Part shown: positions 3,601 to 57,200 of the stretch, piece by piece
Layout: every line of letters begins with the position of its first letter
How positions within the stretch are numbered: the first letter of the stretch is position 1
NCBI GenBank assembly: GCA_018302815.1
Contig: JAGVZE010000015.1
Coordinates: 2,328 to 66,327 of the forward strand
Source of the DNA: Candidatus Woesearchaeota archaeon
Lineage (GTDB): Archaea > Nanobdellota > Nanobdellia > Woesearchaeales > ARS49
DNA: 64,000 nt
Reading direction: 5' to 3'
The notes under the pieces: model-generated
What the model was told of the DNA's origin: nothing
The model's input: only the letters and a program-made list of their open reading frames with translations
The model's database searches: none
Made by a program: the position numbers and the translations under genes

Positions 3601-3689
3601 AATCTGCGCGGCCTTCTCGTGATATGGGATAAAGCCCAAAAACAAAAGCACTAGCCCTAACAAATTAAGCACTCCTAACGTTCTCATAT

Positions 3690-4394
3690 TCATCCTGTAC
3701 TCACCCCGAGCGTGTAGTATATCATCCAGCCTGCAAGCGCGAGCAGCAAAAGTCCGATAGCAAGGCGCATAAGCCCCTTGTGCTTATTCCTCCACCGCTC
3801 AAGCTTGCTCCAATGGACGCCCTTAGTCACAAAAAATAGTATGACTACCAGCGGAAGCACGAAAATAAGATTGTATATGATGAGCAGAATAATGTTGTGT
3901 GTGGTGACGCCTGCAAGAGACATCAGCGCGAGAACAGCAAGGTACACAGCTCCAGTGCACGGAAGCTCAACAAGCGCAACAAATACGCCCAAGAACGCGG
4001 AAGTGAGCGGTGAATCCCCTACTTTTGTAACATATTTCTTTATACGTTCAGCTTCCGATGGAAAAATGGAAAGAGAGAACCCTCGTCCATACCAGAAGAA
4101 ATCTTTTATTTCTAACAGGCCGGCAAGAGCGATTATTCCAGCTATCACGTAATAACTAATGACGGAAAATCCTGCGAGCGAGCGGATAATAGGCAAAAGC
4201 ACCAAACCTGCGACTAAGTACGTGAGGAAAACGAATGTGATGTAAACAAGACCGTTGAAGAGCATATGGCTCTTGTGCGCGGTCTTAGCCAAATACGCGA
4301 GCATGAAAATCAACACTCCGAACGCGCACGGATTGATGCCGTCAATAAGGGCGGCGCCAACCACGATAGGCAAACTAATCTCAGCCATCAGCAA
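3690..4394 (-). CDS. ccdA: CcdA/DsbD-family thiol-disulfide transmembrane electron transporter
   Basis: Six-TM protein with ALIDGINPCAFGVLIF motif and second conserved Cys (ELPCTGAV) typical of CcdA. Confidence 0.75.
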   Translation of the reverse strand: MLMAEISLPIVVGAALIDGINPCAFGVLIFMLAYLAKTAHKSHMLFNGLVYITFVFLTYLVAGLVLLPIIRSLAGFSVISYYVIAGIIALAGLLEIKDFFWYGRGFSLSIFPSEAERIKKYVTKVGDSPLTSAFLGVFVALVELPCTGAVYLAVLALMSLAGVTTHNIILLIIYNLIFVLPLVVILFFVTKGVHWSKLERWRNKHKGLMRLAIGLLLLALAGWMIYYTLGVSTG

Positions 4395-4461
4395 AACTCA
4401 CACACGTTTTTCTTCTTCACTGCTTTCTTAGCTGTTTTCTTTTTCGCGGCCATCTTTCACC

Positions 4462-5058
4462 TCATTCAAATGTGATAACAATATCATCGCCATCTTTCCA
4501 AGCGTATTGGTCAAATTCAAGCTGCGGCGCTCCATTAACCATCATCCGCACTATGCCTGCTTTTTCATCAGAACATAAATCATCATTGCAATATTTTCCG
4601 ATGCATCGCGAGGAAAAAGGCAGGTCCATCTCAGTTAGGAACGCTCCAACTTTCAAGGGAGCATCATTTAACAATCGATGAGTCACAGGGTCGTATGGCA
4701 ATCTTTCGTGGAAATGGATGTAATTACGTTCTTTGTGCGTATGCGGACCTTCCAATGGACCGTGTTCGAGCGGGAACAATGTTTTCTCACCGCAAATATG
4801 AACTGCTATGTCCGCGTGGATATGGAACGTCTTTATGCATCGGTCTTCATAGCAAACCTCGAATTCCTCAATCTGCTCAACTGAAGAGCGATAAGTATAG
4901 ACTGAGTACACAAGAAACACAGTAAAACCTAACACTGCAATAAACCCAAGAAAGCGCAGCAAGGCGCTGCCTGTTCCCACACTCTTCTTTTTCATTACCC
5001 TTTCAAGAGCATTGGCCTTTAAAAACCTTTTTGCCAAAACATTTATAAACCCCCTCAC
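4462..5058 (-). CDS. membrane-anchored Cys/His-rich hypothetical protein (possible extracytoplasmic redox or metal partner of CcdA)
   Basis: ORF with N-terminal TM anchor (likely true start at MKKKSVG, approx 4995). Soluble domain carries CYEDRC, HIHADIAVHICGE, HTHKERNYIHFHE and CIGKYCNDDLC motifs. Lies immediately upstream of ccdA on the same strand (68-nt gap). Confidence 0.45.
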   Translation of the reverse strand: MRGFINVLAKRFLKANALERVMKKKSVGTGSALLRFLGFIAVLGFTVFLVYSVYTYRSSVEQIEEFEVCYEDRCIKTFHIHADIAVHICGEKTLFPLEHGPLEGPHTHKERNYIHFHERLPYDPVTHRLLNDAPLKVGAFLTEMDLPFSSRCIGKYCNDDLCSDEKAGIVRMMVNGAPQLEFDQYAWKDGDDIVITFE

Positions 5059-6856: not shown

Positions 6857-6996
6857 ACAGTCATTAGATGCGAGTATGTATAAAAAGCTAATTGGCGATT
6901 GGAATTTAAGATTAGTTCGTTTGTGATTCTTAATTCTTAGTTAAATTTATAAGGCAACGAGTGCGAGAATTTGAAAGGATAGACGATAATCCTTTT

Positions 6997-7080
6997 GCGG
7001 CCATGGCACAATCCGGTACTGCGTCGGTCTTGAAAACCGATTTCCGAAAGGATATCCCGGTTCAAATCCGGGTGGCCGCG
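6997..7080 (+). tRNA. tRNA-Ser (anticodon TGA)
   Basis: Acceptor GCGGCCA/TGGCCGC, 3-bp D stem GCA/TGC, anticodon arm TCGGT-CTTGAAA-ACCGA, long variable arm TTCCGAAAGGA, T arm CCCGG-TTCAAAT-CCGGG, discriminator G. No encoded CCA. Confidence 0.85.
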
Positions 7081-7130
7081 TATTTTTATTTCTCAAAAAC
7101 TTCGTTATTGTAATTTTTGTGTATATTGTC

Positions 7131-7220
7131 ACCCTGATTTGAACATCTGCGGACTGCTAGGCAGTCCTTGACATCAAAATTCTCGCGCCGCTCGAATTTC
7201 GATGAATCCGGGTGGCCGCG
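7131..7220 (+). repeat. tRNA-Ser(TGA)-attached structured repeat unit (inverted T-loop copy ... 7-bp hairpin ... direct copy of tRNA 3' terminus)
   Basis: 7131-7147 ACCCTGATTTGAACATC is the reverse complement of the tRNA T-loop/3' T-stem (14 of 15 nt). GGACTGCTAGGCAGTCC is a perfect 7-bp hairpin. 7204-7220 AATCCGGGTGGCCGCGT repeats the last 17 nt of the adjacent tRNA. The module 7137-7173 is homologous (inverted) to 22408-22444 at the tRNA-Glu locus. Confidence 0.6.
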
Positions 7221-7249
7221 TCTAATATTGGTTTGAATGAAGAAATCAG

Positions 7250-22082: not shown

Positions 22083-22619
22083 ATACGCCGACGCCAGGAT
22101 TACTCGCAAACCTGCGGTTTGCGAGCTTTCAAATTCGCTTCGCTCATTTGAAATGAATCCAATTGTTCAAATCCCGTAACAAAGGTGACGATACAAAACT
22201 TCGTTTTTGAAATATGCCGACGCGGGGAGTCATACGACGCGAAGGATATCGCGAGGATGTCAACAACCACTCGTTAAAACAAGTGGCGTGTTTGACATAG
22301 TCACAATTAACCAATCCTGCTCGTGGTTGTTGAGCATGCTCGGAATGCCACCTAATTTGGTTTGCACAGGAGCAAACCACGATATAAAACCGGTGGCATT
22401 CCGACATGTCAAGGACTGTCATGCAGTCCGCAGATGTTCAAATCCGGCGTATAACCGCAGATTATGCTAGAACGAAGTTCTTTTGTAAAAATATATGCCG
22501 ACGCCGGGATTACACGCAAACTGCGGTTTGCGAGTTTTCAGGCTCGCTTCGCTCACCTGAAATGAACCTGTGGTTCAAATTCTTGTAGTGTCTGTTGAAA
22601 GAGCTTCGCTCTGAAAGTA
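22083..22619 (-). repeat. tandem array of three tRNA-Glu-associated structured repeat units (about 129, 281 and 127 bp)
   Basis: In the tRNA (minus) orientation each unit ends with AATCC(C/T)GGCGTCGGC(A/G)T, a copy of the tRNA-Glu 3' terminus; in unit B only the last 10 nt (GCGTCGGCAT) match. Each starts with an inverted T-loop segment (GTTCAAAT on the plus strand at about 22176, 22436 and 22573). Units A and C share a 9-bp hairpin (CTCGCAAAC-loop-GTTTGCGAG) and a second hairpin with a conserved loop GAGCGAAGCGA. Unit B carries modules shared with the Ser(TGA) and Ser(GGA) loci. Confidence 0.6.
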
Positions 22620-22694
22620 TGCCGACGCCGGGATTTGAACCCGGGTCTCAGCCGCGAGAGGGCCGAATACTTGACCGGACTATACTACATCGGC
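22620..22694 (-). tRNA. tRNA-Glu (anticodon CTC)
   Basis: Minus-strand sequence GCCGATG-TA-GTAT-AGTCCGGTCAA-GTAT-T-CGGCC-CTCTCGC-GGCTG-AGAC-CCGGG-TTCAAAT-CCCGG-CGTCGGC-A. D-loop AGTCCGG is archaeal Glu-like. D stem is weak (G.U and U.G pairs). No encoded CCA. The ORFs called over it (22595..22780, 22635..22970) are spurious. Confidence 0.75.
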
Positions 22695-22808
22695 TTAATG
22701 GCCCGAAGTCGTCAGGGAACCCTTGCGCTCGGCACCGGATTTCTGACGCGGGCAGTGCTAAAAGACCGCTATCCGTTTAAAAAGGTATCGCTCGAGATTT
22801 CAGGAAAA

Positions 22809-27106: not shown

Positions 27107-27128
27107 ACAGAGCGCTCAAAAACCACGT

Positions 27129-27211
27129 GCTGTCGTCGCATAACCTGGTATTGCACAGGCCTGGAAAGCCTGACCCGCAAGGGTATCCCGGTTCAAATCC
27201 GGGCGACAGCG
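27129..27211 (+). tRNA. tRNA-Ser (anticodon GGA)
   Basis: Acceptor GCTGTCG/CGACAGC, 3-bp D stem GCA/TGC, anticodon arm CAGGC-CTGGAAA-GCCTG, long variable arm, T arm CCCGG-TTCAAAT-CCGGG, discriminator G. No encoded CCA. Confidence 0.85.
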
Positions 27212-27257
27212 TATATTTTCAGTTAAATAATTTTGTTCTAATCCGCTATGTTCTTAA

Positions 27258-27316
27258 CCGCCCGGATTTGAACATCCTCGCGATATCCTTCGCGTCGTAT
27301 GACTTCTGGCCACAGC
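27258..27316 (+). repeat. tRNA-Ser(GGA)-attached structured repeat unit
   Basis: CCGCCCGGATTTGAAC is the reverse complement of the tRNA T-loop/3' T-stem (15 nt). The module CATCCTCGCGATATCCTTCGCGTCGTATGAC (27274-27304) is the reverse complement of 22229-22259 in unit B at the tRNA-Glu locus. It ends CCACAGCG, mimicking the tRNA 3' end CGACAGCG. Confidence 0.55.
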
Positions 27317-27348
27317 GTGTAGTTTAGTCAAATAATCTCTTTTCAATT

Positions 27349-28532: not shown

Positions 28533-28609
28533 TGGTGGCGGTGGCGTGATTTGAACACGCGACAACCGGCTTATGAAACCGGTGCTCTGCCAGGCTGAGC
28601 TACACCGCC
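28533..28609 (-). tRNA. tRNA-Met (anticodon CAT; elongator-type, G1:C72)
   Basis: Minus strand GGCGGTG-TA-GCTC-AGCCTGGCA-GAGC-A-CCGGT-TTCATAA-GCCGG-TTGTC-GCGTG-TTCAAAT-CACGC-CACCGCC-A-CCA. The 3' CCA is genomically encoded. Confidence 0.85.
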
Positions 28610-49567: not shown

Positions 49568-52500
49568 CTATTTGCGTCGCGTTCTTGTTCTTGCGGCGTT
49601 TTCCTGCCATTGCCGCAATCTCTTATCAACCCTCGCTAAGTCCTTTTTAATAGCTAGAAGATCCACGTCTTTTTTGTTCGAGCCTTTTTTACGCCTCGCT
49701 CGAATAAATAAGCCAATCAGTCCCATAATTGCAACGAGAGCCAAAAGTTCAGATGATGCGATTTCCCAAAGACCTGCAGTTATAGAGCCAAGATTGCCCT
49801 GCACTTGTCCTGCCGCAACCGAAAGTCCAGTTGGGTTTTCAACAGTAGCTAGGAATCCTGCCGCCAAGGTTATGATTGTTATGGCCAGCGCATTCAATGT
49901 TTTACGCGCAATAGGTTTGTCCAGTTTTCGCAGCTCTATGATGACCATTCCATCAGCTATTTGTTTCACTTTGACAGTCATATCGTCCTTGCCATCATTG
50001 TCTGCGTCGATGAACGCCCATCGTTTTGGCATCAATCGCAGTTGTTTACCAGAAACGCTAAATGTGGCGCAGTTCTTTGCCACTCGCTCGATGTGTAGTT
50101 CGGTTCGAACATCATTTACCGTGAACAGCACGCGGTCTTTAACACGAAGCGCAACAGTAGTCATAACGCTTCCTGCAAGGCGGAATGTTCGAGCTCTGTG
50201 CCGCGTAGATACCTTTTCGTCTTTCTTGCGATTGTATGCCAAGTAATACGCGATGAACAGGATAACTGCCAAAACAATGAGTGAACTCCAACCACTGCCA
50301 AATCCGTTCTCCTGATCCGAAGTTTTCCTATCTAACGCGCGGCCCACCATCTCTCCTATGTCTTTATTCAACGCTCCGGCCGGAGTTTCTCTGTTTAGCA
50401 CATTGGTTGCCTTAACATCATCCGCACTGTTTTTATTCGTGAAGAATCCTGCAGAGTCAGATTTTGTCAGTTCGAGGAGCAGCGATGCTTTCGCCTTTTC
50501 CACGCCAAGCAAAGTCACTTTCAAATCGCGCAAACCATCCGCGTTCAAGTCAACATCAATAGTCTGTCCAGGATATATCGCGAATTCCTGCAATGGATCC
50601 TTGGTTCTGAACCAGACAGGAAGAACTGATGATTCTAGCATTATCAATGAGAATTCTTGCTCGGGAGTCCTAATAATCACCTTATCGAGTTTGCCAAGAT
50701 AGGGCGTTGTGAAATTACCTGCGCTCATGCTGTACGTTTTCGCCTGTCCGCCTGCGCCACCGCCCCCTCCGCCCCCACCAGAACGTCCAGAGCCTGCTGA
50801 AGCGCCCTGTTGGACTGAGAACGCGCTAAATGCGTTAGTTTGGATTGTGAACGTGTCAGCACTTTTGTTTTGTACTGCTGCGTGAGAACTCCATGTTCCT
50901 TCGCACGTTCGCGTTGTGAAATTCCAATTCGCACATTTAACTATGCTTAGCAAATCTTCATTCGTGTAACCAGAACCGGCATAACTTATCACCAGTTCTG
51001 CTGACGTGAAATTGTACGTGCTGTTGAAACCATACGTTATTAGGAAATCTTCAACGGAAGTAAGGTCGACCCCGAGAGTATCATTGTCAAATATCGATAG
51101 GTTGATAGAGTTCAATCTTGTGAGGAGTGCCCCTCCAAACTGAGTGTAGAATAAATCGTATACTATATCAGAAATCTCTTCAGTTGTAGTTCCGTTGAAA
51201 ATCTGCAAGTCTATTCTAGTATTTGTGCTGGCCAGGAATACAGTTAAGTTTGATTCAATCCCATTAAGAGTGCTGTTAACGACATTGAAAGTAATATTCC
51301 TTCTCAAAGTACCTGCGAAGAACAGGTCAATCACAGGAACCACTCCTAGCGTTCCGTTTACCCAGTATGTGATGTTGTGCCGGCCAGGAATCACCACGGT
51401 GTACGCAGTCGGAGATGGAAGAACAATTATTGTTCCATTGGGCAAAGTAATGTTAACGAGCACCGGAACGCCATTTGCGGTCCCGTTAAGCGACACGTTT
51501 TGCCCTACAATAGGATCGTATGGGCTCGTCGTAGCGTTAATAATTGGAACACCACCTATCACGGTGATATTCGCAACGTGCGTGACATTGCTGTTGCCGG
51601 CACTATCATTTATCGTCATGTTAAGCGTATAATTTCCGGGAGTGAGATTCGCAGGAATAGTGAAATTTATCGGCAGCTGCGAACTGCTGTTAATCGTAAT
51701 CGGACCCTGAACCACCGTAACATTTCCTGAGCTGTTGTATAGAATGAATGTTATGTTTATCGGGAACTCACTGCTAGTGAAGTTCACTGAAACATTCTCT
51801 TCAGACTGGTTGTTGATTATTGGTGATTGAGGACTTGTCGTGACATTCGTAATGTTTGGAGGCGCATTCTCTGAAACGTTAAACGAGGTCTGCGTGTCGT
51901 TCACATTCCCGCTCGTGTCATTTGCTATGAATGTGACGTTATATTGCCCTGATAGGTTAGGAATCAGGAACGAAGCATTATACTTGCTCCCGGCCGCAAA
52001 TGAAAGGTTGATTATCTGAGTCGTGCCATTCGGAAACGTTATATTGGCAACAACTTTGTCAACCGCAACATTATCAGTCACATTCACGCTTATCTCAATC
52101 GTCTGGCTCTTGTTGAACGTAGCATTCGGCCGCGGGTCAAAAATGAGCGGAGGCATGATGTCAACAACTGTTATGTTCGCGACGTGAACCTCCACATTGT
52201 TGCCATTCGAATCGTTCACAGTCATATTGAGCGTGTAATTCCCAATGCTCAGGTTCGCAGGAATTGTGAAGTTAATAGGCAGGTCTGAACTGCTGTTCAC
52301 CTGCGTTGGGCCCTGAACAACGATAACGCTTCCAGTGCTATTGTACAATATGAAAGTCACATTAATCGGGAACTCACTGCTCGTGAAGTTCACCGAGACA
52401 TTTTGCTCAGACTGATTGTTCGTTATCGGCGAAGCAGGACTTGTCGTAATGTTTGTGTGCGGAACCGCAAAAGACGCGTTATATTTGTTTCCAACGGCAA

Positions 52501-54115
52501 GCGACAAGTTGACAATCATGCTCGTACCATTCGGGAATGTTATGTTCGCGCGCACTGAATTCACGCCAATGTTGTCAGTCACGTTCGCAGCTATCTCAAT
52601 CGTCTGGCTCGTGTTGAATGTCGAATTCGCAGAAGGACGGACATCGAAAACGAGCGGCGCACTTATGTCTGTCACGTCAAAGAAACCCGTCTCAGTATTG
52701 TTTGAATTGCCCGTCGTGTCGTTCGCCAAAATCCTGAACGTATATGTTCCGTTTAGCTCTGGAGTCGTGAAATTCGCGCTGTACTTGGTCCCATTTTCCA
52801 AAAACAGCTGGATGAGCTGGAACGTGCCGTTGGGGAAGCTGACATTAACAAAGACCGAACCTATGCCAATATTATCAGTCACATTCGCCGACAAGGTTAT
52901 GTTCTGATTCGTGGCAAAATTCGTGCCGTTCATCGGCTGCAAGTCAATAACCTGCGGAGGCTCGCCGTCAGCAGACACGAAAAATGTAGTTTGCGTATTG
53001 TTGAGATTGCCGCTTGTATCGTTCGCGATGAATGTGATGTTGTATTGCCCTGTGAGGTTTGGCACGGTGAATGACGCGTTGTACTTGTTTCCTGCGGCAA
53101 GCGTTAAGTTGATTATTTGGGAGGTTCCGTTGGGGAATGTTATGTTCGCGCGCACAGTGCTTACCTGCACGTTGTCTGTCACGTTCGCTGATATCTCTAT
53201 CGTATCGCTCGTGTTGAATGAGGAGTTTTGCGCTGGGCGAACATCGAAAACGAGCGGAGGAGTGATGTCTATTACTGTTATGTTTGCGACGTGAACCTCC
53301 ACATTGTTGCCGTTCGAATCGTTCACAGTCATATTGAGCGTGTAATTCCCAATGTTCAGGTTCGCAGGAATTGTGAAGTTAATAGGCAGGTCTGAACTGC
53401 TGTTCACCTGCGTTGGGCCCTGAACAACGATAACGCTTCCTGTGCTATTGTACAATATGAAAGTCACATTGATCGGGAACTCATCGCTTGTGAAATTCAC
53501 AGTCACATTCTGAACACTTTGATTGTTAGTTATGGGCGAACCAGGACTTGTTGTAACATTTGTGATATTCGGAGCCCTAAAGTCGCTTGCGACAAAGAAC
53601 GAGGTAGTAGAACCGTTAATGTTTCCGCTGGTGTCGTTTGCGATGAATGTGATGTTGTATTGACCTGTTAGGTTTGGTATGCTGAATGATGAGTTGTACT
53701 TGTTTCCTGTTGTGATCGTCAGGTTTATGAGTTGTGATGTGCCATTGGGGAATGTGATGTTCGCCTGGACAACTCCAACTTGAACGTTGTCGGTCACGTT
53801 CGCAGATATCTCAATAGTGTCGCTCGTGTTGAATGTCGAGTTCGCAGAAGGGCGGACATCGAATACGAGCGGAGGAGTAATGTCGATGACCGTGATGTTC
53901 GCAACGTGCGTCTCAATGCTGTTGCCATTCGAATCATTCACAGTCATATTCAAGACGTAAGTTCCAATGCTAAGATTCGCAGGAATGGTGAAGTTTATCG
54001 GCAACTGTCCGCTGCTGTTGATTTGCGTTGGGCCCTGCACTACGATGACTGCTCCAGTACTGTTATAAAGAATGAACGTAACATTAATCGGGAACTCACT
54101 GCTCGTGAAGTTCAC
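49568..54115 (-). CDS. giant surface adhesin-like protein, C-terminal portion (repeat modules, Gly-rich linker, C-terminal TM anchor)
   Basis: Repeated about 95-aa modules (ANITFPNGT...VTDN...). Extreme density of N-x-S/T sequons. GGGGGGGAGG linker. C-terminal hydrophobic anchor (LLALVAIMGLIGLFI) plus RARRKKG tail. Begins with the same module that ends the upstream ORF. Confidence 0.75.
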   Translation of the reverse strand: MNFTSSEFPINVTFILYNSTGAVIVVQGPTQINSSGQLPINFTIPANLSIGTYVLNMTVNDSNGNSIETHVANITVIDITPPLVFDVRPSANSTFNTSDTIEISANVTDNVQVGVVQANITFPNGTSQLINLTITTGNKYNSSFSIPNLTGQYNITFIANDTSGNINGSTTSFFVASDFRAPNITNVTTSPGSPITNNQSVQNVTVNFTSDEFPINVTFILYNSTGSVIVVQGPTQVNSSSDLPINFTIPANLNIGNYTLNMTVNDSNGNNVEVHVANITVIDITPPLVFDVRPAQNSSFNTSDTIEISANVTDNVQVSTVRANITFPNGTSQIINLTLAAGNKYNASFTVPNLTGQYNITFIANDTSGNLNNTQTTFFVSADGEPPQVIDLQPMNGTNFATNQNITLSANVTDNIGIGSVFVNVSFPNGTFQLIQLFLENGTKYSANFTTPELNGTYTFRILANDTTGNSNNTETGFFDVTDISAPLVFDVRPSANSTFNTSQTIEIAANVTDNIGVNSVRANITFPNGTSMIVNLSLAVGNKYNASFAVPHTNITTSPASPITNNQSEQNVSVNFTSSEFPINVTFILYNSTGSVIVVQGPTQVNSSSDLPINFTIPANLSIGNYTLNMTVNDSNGNNVEVHVANITVVDIMPPLIFDPRPNATFNKSQTIEISVNVTDNVAVDKVVANITFPNGTTQIINLSFAAGSKYNASFLIPNLSGQYNVTFIANDTSGNVNDTQTSFNVSENAPPNITNVTTSPQSPIINNQSEENVSVNFTSSEFPINITFILYNSSGNVTVVQGPITINSSSQLPINFTIPANLTPGNYTLNMTINDSAGNSNVTHVANITVIGGVPIINATTSPYDPIVGQNVSLNGTANGVPVLVNITLPNGTIIVLPSPTAYTVVIPGRHNITYWVNGTLGVVPVIDLFFAGTLRRNITFNVVNSTLNGIESNLTVFLASTNTRIDLQIFNGTTTEEISDIVYDLFYTQFGGALLTRLNSINLSIFDNDTLGVDLTSVEDFLITYGFNSTYNFTSAELVISYAGSGYTNEDLLSIVKCANWNFTTRTCEGTWSSHAAVQNKSADTFTIQTNAFSAFSVQQGASAGSGRSGGGGGGGGAGGQAKTYSMSAGNFTTPYLGKLDKVIIRTPEQEFSLIMLESSVLPVWFRTKDPLQEFAIYPGQTIDVDLNADGLRDLKVTLLGVEKAKASLLLELTKSDSAGFFTNKNSADDVKATNVLNRETPAGALNKDIGEMVGRALDRKTSDQENGFGSGWSSLIVLAVILFIAYYLAYNRKKDEKVSTRHRARTFRLAGSVMTTVALRVKDRVLFTVNDVRTELHIERVAKNCATFSVSGKQLRLMPKRWAFIDADNDGKDDMTVKVKQIADGMVIIELRKLDKPIARKTLNALAITIITLAAGFLATVENPTGLSVAAGQVQGNLGSITAGLWEIASSELLALVAIMGLIGLFIRARRKKGSNKKDVDLLAIKKDLARVDKRLRQWQENAARTRTRRK

Positions 54116-54142
54116 CGAGACATTTTGCTCAGACTGATTGTT

Positions 54143-54218
54143 CGTTATCGGCGAAGCAGGACTTGTCGTAATGTTTGTGTCGTTATCGGCGAAGCAGGAC
54201 TTGTCGTAATGTTTGTGA
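54143..54218 (-). repeat. 38-bp tandem duplication (2 copies) that frameshifts the giant surface-protein gene
   Basis: CGTTATCGGCGAAGCAGGACTTGTCGTAATGTTTGTG(T/A) occurs twice in tandem (54143-54180, 54181-54218). The paralogous module at about 52402-52440 has one copy. 38 is not divisible by 3. The upstream ORF stops at 54145 and the downstream ORF restarts at 54115. Confidence 0.7.
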
Positions 54219-57200
54219 CATTCGGCGCAGAAACATCCTGCGCGATAACTGTGAAATTCGCGCTCAGGAACGTCTGCTTCGGGAATGTTATCGTCTTTGC
54301 AGTTCTGTTCACCACGCTCTCATTAGTTATGTTGAAAGTTCCTGTCGAATTCGTGATAGCCACAAAGAATACGAAATCGCTGTCATTGCCCGGTATGTAC
54401 GCGGAATAATCCGTGAAAACAGTCACGTTCTCGATTCGCACGTTTGCAGTGAATATGGTGAACACGCTGATGTCCCATCGTTTCAATCCTGTGGTGTTTA
54501 CCGCCAAAAGCTCGTCATCACGCAGAGCATCCTTGTGCCTAACTTCAGCAGTTTCATTCACTATGGTGAATGGCGGCACAACTTCAGTGTCATACACTAT
54601 AACATCGTCAGTTAGGACTGTCACAAGCTCAGGAGCTCCAAGCGACGCGTTATCAGTCGCCCATAACTGGCCTGTTGAATTATAAACACGCACTGTGTTG
54701 TTAATCACGCTTGGCTTGTATTGAGAGAGAGTCTCCAAAACGTTGAAATATCTAAGGAAAAGCGACGTATTCAACGAATTATTCAGCTGAGCGGTGTGAT
54801 TTATTGTAATGTTCAGCGTGCTTTGCGGCCCCATGGTGTAGTTTGGCTCTGACTGCCTAAACGCAATCTGCGTCGCTGTGATCTGCGATGGCTGGGCGTG
54901 GAATACTTCAATGCTTGCCGGCTCATCCGAATAGTTATAGAATAATGTCACGTTGATTGTAGTGTTCGACAAAAGGAGCGGCGAGGCGCTGCACCTGACG
55001 CTTAGCGCAAGGAAATTGTTCTGGTCTATCGTGGCTCCATTTATTGAGACGTTCTGCTCGATCACGCTCGGAGAGGTTGAAGCGGTTGAATTTCCGCAGG
55101 ACTCAAAAATATTCTCCAAATTCGTGTTGAGAATGTGGAAGCATAACTGCGGATCGCACGTGTCGTTTTGTGAAACAGACAAATTCAGCCTCAATGCCGC
55201 GTTTCCAAGGAAAGTGTAAACCCTCAGGAAGCTGCAGTTCACATCAGTGTTTGAGCCGCAGAAGAAAAAGTCCGCCAGCGAAACATTCGTCGCGTTCGGC
55301 GAGAGAGCGACTTCAAATGAACGATTCAGCACAGTCGAAGTGTTAGGCTCATCTTTAGATAACCACGTGGTAGAGTTCGATATATTGCTCCCATCGCCTC
55401 CGAAAAGAATGTTGCGCGTCTCTATCAGGTAATTGAGCCAGATGATATTCGCGCTTGTCGAGTTCGTCGCATTTGAATAACTCGCGTCAGAGCACGTTGC
55501 AGTGAAGCTCGTGTTCGCAAATTCTCTGAACGTGTCCAGCGAGCCAGTATAGTTGCCTGTGCTCGCGTTGAACGTCAGCGCAGTTGTGATTGCGGTGTTA
55601 TTTGAAACTACTGAACACGTTCCTGTGCTTATCGAACTATTAGTCAAAACGTCAAAGAAGCGAACCTGGAACGGTATGTAAAATTTGATGCCAAAGTCAG
55701 GATTCTCCTCTGCGGTCGCGGCAGTTCCTTGCAGATACGTCGTCTGATTAATTGAAATCGCAAGCGCGCTCAATCCGGTCACGGTAAAGTTTGTCTGCGC
55801 AGTGTTATTGACATTTCCGAACGTGTCATTCGCTATGAACGTCACATTGTACGTTCCGGCGATGGAGGGAATGACAAAAGAGGCGTTGAAATACGAACCG
55901 CTCAAATTCGTAAGGTTCACAACGTAAATTGTTCCATTCGGGAATGTGATGTTCGCGGTGACGTTTTCTATCGCGTAGTTATCGGTAACATTGGCAGCTA
56001 TCTCTATTGTGCTTGCGGCGGAAAATGACGAATTCACCGCAGGACTTATCGCAGTCACTTGAGGGTAAATCAAGTCAACAACATTGAACGTCCTTGAAGT
56101 CACAAGAGAATTATCGGATGAATCGTAAACAAATATCGTCCAAGTGCCAAGATTATGCGATATGTTCGTCGCGAGCTCATCATCAACAGTCCCGTTAACA
56201 TCCACTGAAATGTTCGCGCTAGTCCTTGTTTGATTCACACCATCGAACCACACAAAGAAAATACTCGATATACCCTGCAAGTTGAATGAGCGAGCGTAAA
56301 TCGTGCTGAAAATCTCAAAAGACTCGGAAAGTGTGGTTCGCGCGGAATCATTGAAGACCGAAACACCGCGCGGAGTAGTGTTTATAGTGATATTGCGAGA
56401 AATGGCAGAATCCACTGATGAATTCGCGAACACACGGGTGAATTCATTATCGCTCAAGGTAACATTGTTCGGAACATCAATACGCACATACAACGTGCTT
56501 TTGCCGCCGAATGGAGCTAATGATCCAACGTCCACAACCGTGTCGCCATCAGTGTCGGTGAGCGCGACAAAATCATCATTAACAAATGTCGCGTTCCAGC
56601 CTTCTATTTGATTGAAGCTGAAATCTATTGCGTCGGACTGATTTCCATTATTTGTGACATTCAATTGGAAATAATTCCTTGTGCCTGCAGTTACTGATGT
56701 GGTGTAGTTTTGGACAAGGATCAATCTATCAAGAATGGTCGTGGTCATCGTGGCATTCGTGAAAATAGCAGAATTGACTGAAGAATTCAATCTGATCGTA
56801 GTGGTATCATTTGTGCCTATGCTTGTTCCCCCTGGGACTTGGATGCGAACAATGATATTTTTTGAATCACCAAAAGTCATGCTGCCAGTGTCTATACTTC
56901 CATCACTGTTCGTGTCAGTTAGTAGAGTGCCGTTCGCGAAAAGAACGGTGATGGTCCAGTTATTGGCGGATGTCGTGTTCACATTCAAAATATCGCTGAA
57001 CGCCTGGAAATTGTACACGGTGAAATTGAATGATACGCTAAGGCCCGCTGAGCCGTTAGCGGACTGATTTTTTGGACTGATGGCGATATCGCTGCTAACT
57101 GTCGTAATATCAGTCACGGTTTTGTTATCTCCGCTTGAAGCGGCAGTGATGTTTCTTGTATCAACAGTACCAGTAGTTGCTGAAACTGGGACATTTAGTC

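Follow-up and report, generated by a model that had tools for sequence, protein, structure and literature searches.

tRNA genes are classic landing sites for viruses, plasmids and genomic islands, and the elements described at such sites are kilobase-sized and carry an integrase of their own. The tyrosine integrases of the T-loop class cross over near position 57/58 of the tRNA; this T-loop sublocation class was reportedly distinguished by Williams in 2002, and a repeat starting in the T-loop is said to be the hallmark of its enzymes. The short units described here, which occur in the window (the whole 64-kb stretch of DNA that was analysed) and in other archaeal and bacterial genomes, share with the tyrosine-recombinase islands, proviruses and plasmids found at tRNA genes an intact tRNA, a direct repeat of its 3' end starting in the T-loop, the organization in arrays, and a presence or absence bounded by repeats. 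Indeed, direct repeats of the 3' part with the intact tRNA at one end were found (17 nt, exact, in the window; 0-3 mismatches in about 30 loci), as were occupied and empty sites bounded by repeats (L070, and the rearranged locus of L074/L075; loci from other genomes and contigs are numbered L). Unlike the integrated islands, the units measure 60-240 nt rather than kilobases, ORF scans revealed neither an integrase in or beside them nor genes inside them, they possess an inverted copy of the T-arm and obligatory hairpins, and their interior moves between tRNAs.

Other described systems resemble the units in part. CIMEs and MITE-like elements also retain only their ends, occur in many short copies per genome and have short inverted repeats (GGATT...AATCC), and they depend on an enzyme acting in trans, as the units would. 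However, neither a parent or autonomous relative nor an enzyme was found for the units, whose inverted ends (GGATTTGAAC / GTAACAATCC) are imperfect and whose target duplication, unlike the short one made by a transposon, extends over 17 to about 50 nt and starts from a fixed tRNA position. Integron attC sites and the CTX phage site are, like the units, imperfect palindromes of 60-140 nt that may form arrays, that conserve structure over sequence and in which a folded stem rebuilds a duplex site; the units, in contrast, aim at the T-loop of a tRNA, carry almost no cargo and show no link to IntI or Xer. Their arms, NNGGATT(TGAAC) and AATCCNN, do not correspond to the attC motifs R'' (RYYYAAC) and R' (GTTRRRY), GTTCAAA being a misfit to GTTRRRY, and rather than IntI and attI we found an array headed by a tRNA gene, with no recurrent recombinase family nearby. 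REP/REPIN sequences (RAYT) and the palindromes derived from IS200/IS605 are, as the units are, short intergenic hairpin doublets spreading inside a genome, with perfect stems and, commonly, loops of the C-GAA-G or C-TTC-G type, but they contain no copy of the end of a neighbouring gene and have no tie to tRNAs; moreover, no HUH transposase was seen at the units. Finally, archaeal split tRNAs and tRNAs with T-loop introns recall the units in their DPANN-type hosts and in the module that, in a second subtype of unit, lies exactly at 57/58 of the direct T-arm copy; in the units, though, the functional tRNA is complete and upstream, and the interrupted copy is devoid of positions 1 to about 49.

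Organization of the units in the window

The window contains four tRNA genes, three of which are listed with their units in Table 1, the fourth being Met-CAT (28533-28609, minus strand); the layout described below is present behind three of the four. Read in the orientation of the tRNA, it consists of the tRNA itself, a T-rich spacer with a small hairpin, the T-loop and 3' T-stem copied in inverted orientation, one to several hairpins, and the tRNA 3' end repeated as a direct copy, the unit lying 30-55 nt 3' of the intact tRNA. The inverted copy terminates in GAAC and the direct copy begins inside the T-loop, usually at A58. In the main layout the inverted copy ends in GATTTGAAC-ATC, followed by two hairpins and by the 3'-end copy from near A58.

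Table 1. Coordinates of the tRNA genes and of the parts of their units in the window.
Feature	Position	Strand	Basis
tRNA-Ser(TGA), target gene; T-loop to 3' end (7060-7081) is the segment copied	6996..7081	+	ARAGORN; Rfam tRNA 57.6 bits
Spacer: T-run with TTTCTCA motif, then small AAAAC-TTC-GTT hairpin	7082..7129	+	sequence
Inverted copy of tRNA positions 53-67 (CACCCTGATTTGAAC), then ATC; the family 12-mer GATTTGAACATC is 7136-7147	7130..7147	+	
Hairpin 1, perfect, GGACTGC-TAG-GCAGTCC; within the 42-nt block common to Glu unit B	7151..7167	+	sequence; folds
Second inverted copy of the tRNA 3' region, degenerate (CTCGCGCCGCTCGAATTTCGA)	7182..7202	+	read by eye; agrees with the reverse complement of 7060-7081 at about 15/21 positions
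Direct repeat AATCCGGGTGGCCGCGT, exact 17-nt copy of the tRNA 3' end	7205..7221	+	equals 7065-7081
tRNA-Glu(CTC), head of a three-unit array	22620..22694	-	ARAGORN; Rfam
Unit A', second subtype	22495..22619	-	97-98% identical in relative L070
Unit B, composite	22214..22494	-	inverted-repeat comparison; RNA fold z -7.1; L070 comparison
Unit A, 84-86% identical to A'; decayed tRNA 3'-end copy AATCCTGGCGTCGGCGT at its end	22085..22213	-	whole unit missing in L070
tRNA-Ser(GGA)	27128..27212	+	ARAGORN; Rfam
Short Ser-GGA unit: perfect 15-nt inverted tRNA copy CGCCCGGATTTGAAC, module common to Glu unit B, decayed 3'-end copy TCTGGCCACAGCGT	27258..27318	+	

The sequence-only reading had described the unit behind tRNA-Ser(TGA) as starting with the T-loop and 3' T-stem of that tRNA in inverted form, containing a perfect hairpin and ending with the last 17 nt of the tRNA, and all three features were confirmed at the positions given in Table 1. 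The inverted copy at 7130-7144 is the reverse complement of 7060-7074 with a single mismatch (14/15 nt), and the terminal repeat spans from A58 of the T-loop to one base beyond the discriminator. In minimum-energy folds hairpin 2 arises from pairing between the degenerate second inverted copy and the terminal direct copy, and in a DNA fold of 7055-7150 (z -2.5) the spacer is the loop of a single-strand hairpin of 14/15 bp between the tRNA 3' region and the first inverted copy. The TTTCTCA-type motif of the spacer recurs at other loci, 3' of tRNA ends and of their copies. As for the core of the unit, it had been proposed to be homologous to part of Glu unit B with hairpin-preserving substitutions. 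The homology holds, since 7133-7174 matches 22406-22447 in inverted orientation (90% over 42 nt); the second part of the proposal needs a small correction, the differences being those of the loop and of the closing pair, with no compensatory stem changes.

The array behind tRNA-Glu is heterogeneous, its order being A'-B-A. Units A' and A belong to the second subtype, in which an inverted T-loop (..ATTTGAACC), a short loop and a direct GGTTCA are followed by a two-hairpin module inserted exactly between T-loop positions 57 and 58, before AATCC...; in A' the succession is GAATTTGAACC as inverted T-loop, loop, GGTTCA, a 51-nt module at 57|58, and AATCCCGGCGTCGGCAT. Unit B is homologous to the Ser-TGA unit at its tRNA-proximal end and identical to the Ser-GGA unit at its distal end, and it embeds a 142-nt double hairpin (22264-22405) with TTGACAT repeats on both sides, which is missing in L070. 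Upstream of the same tRNA-Glu we also observed (22695-22790, minus strand) about 80 nt unusually rich in G+C between a TATA-like TTTTTAAAC and the tRNA 5' end, possibly a structured leader or a further small RNA.

As for the short Ser-GGA unit, its inverted copy and its tRNA form a perfect 15-bp hairpin (DNA fold z -6.0), and its segment 27272-27304 is the exact reverse complement of 22228-22260 in unit B (33/33 nt). To judge from the sequence, this unit resembles a version of unit B that has lost its interior between two ACATC repeats. In general, the repeat copies closest to the tRNA are exact and the distal ones are decayed. The decayed 3'-end copy of the Ser-GGA unit (27305-27318) carries the acceptor-stem allele ..GGCCACAGCG of a relative's tRNA-Ser(GGA) (L074, 2810-2854) and not the ..GGGCGACAGCG of the window tRNA; the allele ..GGGCCACAGCG of the tRNA-Ser(GGA) in L074/L075 is thus kept in the window solely in this terminal copy, which, on the basis of one informative site, would fit a displaced older 3' end.

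Two further stretches of the window contain repeats. The intergenic region 42620-42750 begins with the T-loop-like GGTTCGATACC, shares GCCTGAAAACTCGC with Glu unit A', and consists of two interleaved 20-nt inverted repeats (X, Y, X', Y') followed by a T-run; it has the appearance of an attenuator or pseudoknot, or of a further hairpin element. The region 51300-56050, which probably encodes a repeat protein, is made up of long repeats in tandem that are 60-90% identical and have periods of about 300, 600 and 615 nt.

Relationship between the units and their tRNA

The 12-mer GATTTGAACATC can be parsed as GATTTGA-ACA-TC, which gives, in order, the left arm of a T-loop palindrome, its loop and the beginning of its right arm; L035 and L026 possess this palindrome in full. 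Its occurrence in the window exceeds chance: three exact copies are present in 64 kb, about 0.008 being expected (with one mismatch allowed, the mean of shuffled sequences is 0.56), and all three lie 36-54 nt downstream of a tRNA and in its orientation.

The idea that the terminal segments copy the local tRNA and that the interior is common between loci had been advanced from the sequence, and it was borne out both by the block identities within the window and by a permutation test on 38 units. Beyond the universal AATC, the inverted copy agrees with its own tRNA at 4.03 of 8 positions and with other tRNAs at 2.64 of 8, and not one of the 20,000 permutations attained the observed value. Two partners are available to the inverted copy within a single strand. 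It may pair with the tRNA (15 perfect pairs for Ser-GGA, 14/15 for Ser-TGA) or with the terminal copy, which in folds and in the alignment gives a closed three-way junction.

Distribution in other genomes

Contigs carrying an identical neighbour protein come from groundwater metagenomes and harbor an identical unit. A scan of metagenome contigs with a degenerate pattern of the module gave one true match (L016) and seven chance matches, in a collection that is incomplete for the window organism (the window's own contigs were not returned by the scan); in L016 a tRNA-Phe is followed by the same architecture, with an exact 16-nt copy of its own 3' end. A genome scan for a T-loop followed 42-72 nt later by the 12-mer returned 40 loci, mostly from MAGs titled Woesearchaeota, Nanoarchaeia/Nanobdellota or "uncultured Methanosarcinales", together with bacteria. 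The copy of the local tRNA 3' end, which was not part of the pattern, is present with 0-3 mismatches in 23 loci of archaea and 5 of bacteria, where its distance from the T-loop is mostly 100-126 nt, and in a shifted or decayed form in six more; altogether, about 27 archaeal and 7 bacterial loci of the 40 exhibit the architecture, the uniformity of which is partly built in because the search required the 12-mer. Four bacterial loci and one archaeal locus are chance matches. All the real matches are small (about 60-240 nt) and contain no gene. Among the bystander tRNAs of the archaeal loci retrieved, about one third of a dozen or so informative ones have a unit. These data support the proposal that a family of tRNA-directed insertion units exists and that its members stand in arrays.

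The contigs of the "uncultured Methanosarcinales" MAGs carry an intron-containing tRNA-Ile(UAU), as does the Woesearchaeota locus L041 (L025, 3077-3189; L041, 608-725); the label is therefore doubtful and may be wrong.

Evidence for a turnover of units and for interiors common to different tRNAs

The comparison of related genomes revealed whole units and inner hairpin segments that are present in some and absent in others, with breakpoints at repeats. In L070, whose coding background is 85% identical to that of the window, the orthologous tRNA-Glu is followed by A' and a short B: unit A (22085-22213) is absent, and so is a 149-nt inner segment of B (22257-22405), made up of the 142-nt double hairpin and one TTGACAT. 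L074 and L075 have a tRNA-Ser(GGA) with no unit, in a rearranged locus, and L048 contains at least three units, against a single one at its orthologue L039. The insertion polymorphism that the sequence-only reading had asked for is thus seen in these three comparisons; near-identical strains showed no polymorphism at the units. The non-tRNA DNA common to the L070 and window arrays is about 95% identical, compared with 85% for the coding background.

Arrays were found elsewhere as well. Tandem units are present in L044 and L036, and the array of L042 comprises two identical 125-nt units, a short unit, a 1.2-kb segment flanked by repeats, and another unit. This segment (3623-4836, in a tRNA-Ser(GGA) array) has copies of the tRNA 3' end on both sides, the right-hand one starting from GTTCAAATCC, and contains one ORF of 329 aa, for which no Pfam match was found. 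In several loci the duplication extends past the tRNA end through the spacer (about 50 nt in L045; also L041 and L039/L048), which fits either the re-integration of a circle derived from the locus or a long staggered duplication of the target. Upstream of tRNA-Ser(GCT), L039 (reverse strand) and L048 also contain direct repeats of the tRNA 5' end (GTCGGGGTCGCAT...), spaced by about 65-90 nt, with two copies in the former and one in the latter; therefore, the duplication of tRNA ends in these genomes is not confined to the 3' side.

Different tRNAs of one genome have interiors in common, whereas the ends are specific to the local tRNA. At the syntenic tRNA-Ser(TGA) locus L019 the interior of the unit cannot be aligned with that of the window unit, and the same is true at the same tRNA in L068, where a neighbour protein is 87% identical and the terminal copy starts from G52 and not from A58. 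Conversely, a tRNA-Ile unit (L025) and a tRNA-Ser unit (L027) of one MAG have about 61 of 63 nt in common, from GGATTTGAAC to AATCC, with different spacers and repeats. A simple circle carrying a tRNA 3' end cannot explain this pair, because only the block with T-loop-like ends is common; hence, moves between tRNAs need recombination at T-loop-like ends, or some other mechanism.

The same comparison bears on the idea that the units are by-products of local replication or repair, generated with no mobility when, in a heavily transcribed gene, the T-arm hairpin provokes template switching or snap-back synthesis. Such an origin would account for both arms copying the local tRNA, for inner breakpoints that vary (G52 in L068, C56 in L042, A58 in most loci), and for L046, where the inverted copy extends a terminator palindrome across the whole tRNA 3' end. 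Yet it leaves unexplained the conserved ATC, the hairpins, heterogeneous arrays such as A'-B-A, and the non-tRNA interior common between loci and genomes; the sharing of interiors at unrelated tRNAs argues strongly against it, and we consider it highly improbable.

DNA element or RNA gene

The stems of the units are almost all of the Watson-Crick type. G.U pairs number 20 and 21 of about 500 on the two strands, a strand test based on these counts showed no asymmetry, and for 17 of 21 units it is the opposite strand that has a slightly better fold. A T-run lies between each tRNA and its unit and another one after the terminal copy, and no TATA-like box at a fixed distance upstream of the units was seen by eye. 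In L070, two changes within hairpin 1 of unit B are uncompensated; compensatory stem changes in hairpin 1 are found in the orthologous units of L039 and L048 and of L025 and L056. RNAalifold, run on a MAFFT alignment, recovered the closing stem alone, including pairs changed on both sides, because the hairpins are too variable in length to align. The Watson-Crick stems with no G.U strand bias, the T-run with no TATA-like box, and the uncompensated changes of L070 favour an element acting at the DNA level.

It is rather unlikely, in our opinion, that the units instead encode small structured RNAs, either within the tRNA 3' trailer or independently transcribed, whose closing stem would imitate the T-stem and whose 3' tail would be the 3' strand of the acceptor, and which would take part in tRNA processing, quality control or decoy binding. 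The constant orientation of the units with respect to their tRNA, the T-run after the terminal copy (as after a tRNA), the fold of unit B (z -7), the closing stem backed by the alignment with its double-sided changes, the compensatory changes of hairpin 1 in orthologous units, and array DNA that is about 95% identical next to genes that are 85% identical are all in agreement with such RNAs. They are, however, difficult to reconcile with a T-run terminator placed between tRNA and unit and no TATA-like box at a fixed distance (by eye), with G.U pairs that are rare and equal on both strands and a slightly better fold of the opposite one (17/21), and with the two uncompensated changes of L070; nor would they be expected to have modules unalignable at the same tRNA of relatives, identical tandem copies and indels of whole units, to be absent from about half or more of the other tRNAs in the loci retrieved, and to have no match in Rfam. 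The compensatory changes, the trailing T-run and the conservation of the array could reflect selection on a function, a recent spread, or the import of the locus by recombination. As for the tRNA-templated mobile ncRNA that the sequence-only reading had offered as an alternative, the data speak neither for nor against it.

Neighbouring genes, recombinases and database searches

The RNase H-fold gene that had been noticed beside the Ser-TGA unit is indeed a neighbour, and it encodes a DUF429 protein (Pfam, E 4.7e-7). Its association with the unit is incidental, because the syntenic L019 has a unit and not this gene; the nuclease was therefore rejected as a partner of the units. An all-versus-all comparison of neighbouring ORFs gave no family present in more than three loci, and a Pfam analysis of 105 ORFs of at least 170 aa, located within 4 kb of the units in 27 archaeal loci, revealed no recurrent recombinase: the 25 commonest families, among which a lone integrase would not show, are only housekeeping ones. 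The expectation of an intact element combining an integrase with the same ends was not borne out among the 40 genome loci, where every real match is a small unit. Scans of viral contigs with two module sequences gave nothing, or chance matches in coding regions, and the AAA ATPase, used as a protein query, had no relatives in the genome contigs. In Rfam 15 only the tRNAs reach the gathering score, and permissive scans of both loci, which included self-cleaving three-way-junction ribozymes, stayed at chance level. The published literature that was searched does not describe this architecture, and reports only kilobase-sized integrated elements, annotation problems with tRNA fragments, split tRNAs and archaeal integrons.

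Some other candidates were considered and dropped. A hammerhead-like three-way junction was discarded since the junction UGAACAUC is not a hammerhead core and Rfam gave no match. A casposon-type insertion would require terminal inverted repeats beside the target duplication at the tRNA end, and none is present; a retroviral-type primer-binding site is at variance with the sense orientation of the 3'-end copy and with the absence of a CCA complement. Guides of the bridge-RNA (IS110) type were rejected because the two segments matching the tRNA overlap rather than abut and no recombinase ORF is present.

The outcome of these searches is also relevant to the possibility that ordinary integrated plasmids or viruses, kilobases in size, have decayed and left the units as scars, that is, a duplicated attachment site with pieces of arms left after the deletion of genes. 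Direct repeats of the tRNA 3' end starting in the T-loop are typical of integrating elements, archaeal cases of which are on record (PMC9897764); a 1.2-kb segment with an ORF is flanked by repeats in the array of L042, and the distal repeats are decayed. But random deletion should yield neither a narrow range of sizes (the period from repeat to repeat is mostly 100-126 nt) nor a single architecture at about 30 loci. Near-identical blocks at different tRNAs of one genome and identical tandem copies also count against this origin. Moreover, no integrase fragment or recurrent ORF was found nearby, and the viral contigs scanned with the modules contain chance matches in coding regions only. On the whole, we regard an origin of the units from such scars as quite unlikely.

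Possible mechanism of mobility

The interpretation to which we assign about an even chance is that the family consists of miniature, gene-less hairpin DNA elements, non-autonomous, directed to the T-loop and 3' end of tRNA genes, and moved in trans. A recombinase encoded elsewhere would cut and rejoin within the T-loop near position 57/58; the insertion would keep the tRNA intact while displacing or duplicating its 3' end, and the inverted T-arm copy might allow the element, probably single-stranded, to fold into a stem that mimics the duplex target. Counting against this interpretation, the compensatory changes in L039/L048 and L025/L056 and the conservation of the array fit a selected function equally well.

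A more specific proposal can be made by analogy with the CTX phage, for which one-strand exchange with a folded single-strand site yields a succession of target hybrid, loop, inverted arm, cargo and, once more, target hybrid. The units might be attachment cassettes of this kind, in which the inverted T-arm copy and the 3'-end copy, folded together in a single strand, would mimic a duplex T-loop and be exchanged on one strand by a recombinase of the host or of a helper; we put this forward tentatively, as a somewhat improbable solution.

Significance of the units

The units have consequences for assembly and annotation. Four metagenome contigs of the same strain (L004, L007, L008 and L009) end inside tRNA-Ser(TGA) or at the start of its unit, which suggests that the repeats of the units break assemblies. 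In a Logan contig (L064, SRR3989338, 700-997) Glu unit A is followed by the distal module of unit B and then by the Ser-GGA unit with its tRNA, both in reverse complement; the join reflects either an assembly chimera (k=31) formed through the 33-nt repeat (22228-22260 / 27272-27304) or a real inversion of the 5-kb segment that these two inverted copies enclose. One assembly thus joins two loci via a common module; the units also create tRNA-fragment annotations, and they may drive inversions between tRNA loci.

The units are far smaller than the elements known from tRNA genes, and they are gene-less and have a defined fold; nevertheless, they turn over, stack in arrays and share interiors between tRNAs. 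We suggest that they belong with tRNA-targeted insertion elements, with a modest chance that they represent a new kind of folded-site mini-cassette. If they are moved in trans, they would be the mark of a recombination activity specific for the T-loop, present in little-known episymbiotic archaea and apparently in some bacteria as well. If the folded-cassette proposal is correct, they would constitute a new class of tRNA-directed mini-cassette, common to DPANN-type archaea and bacteria.
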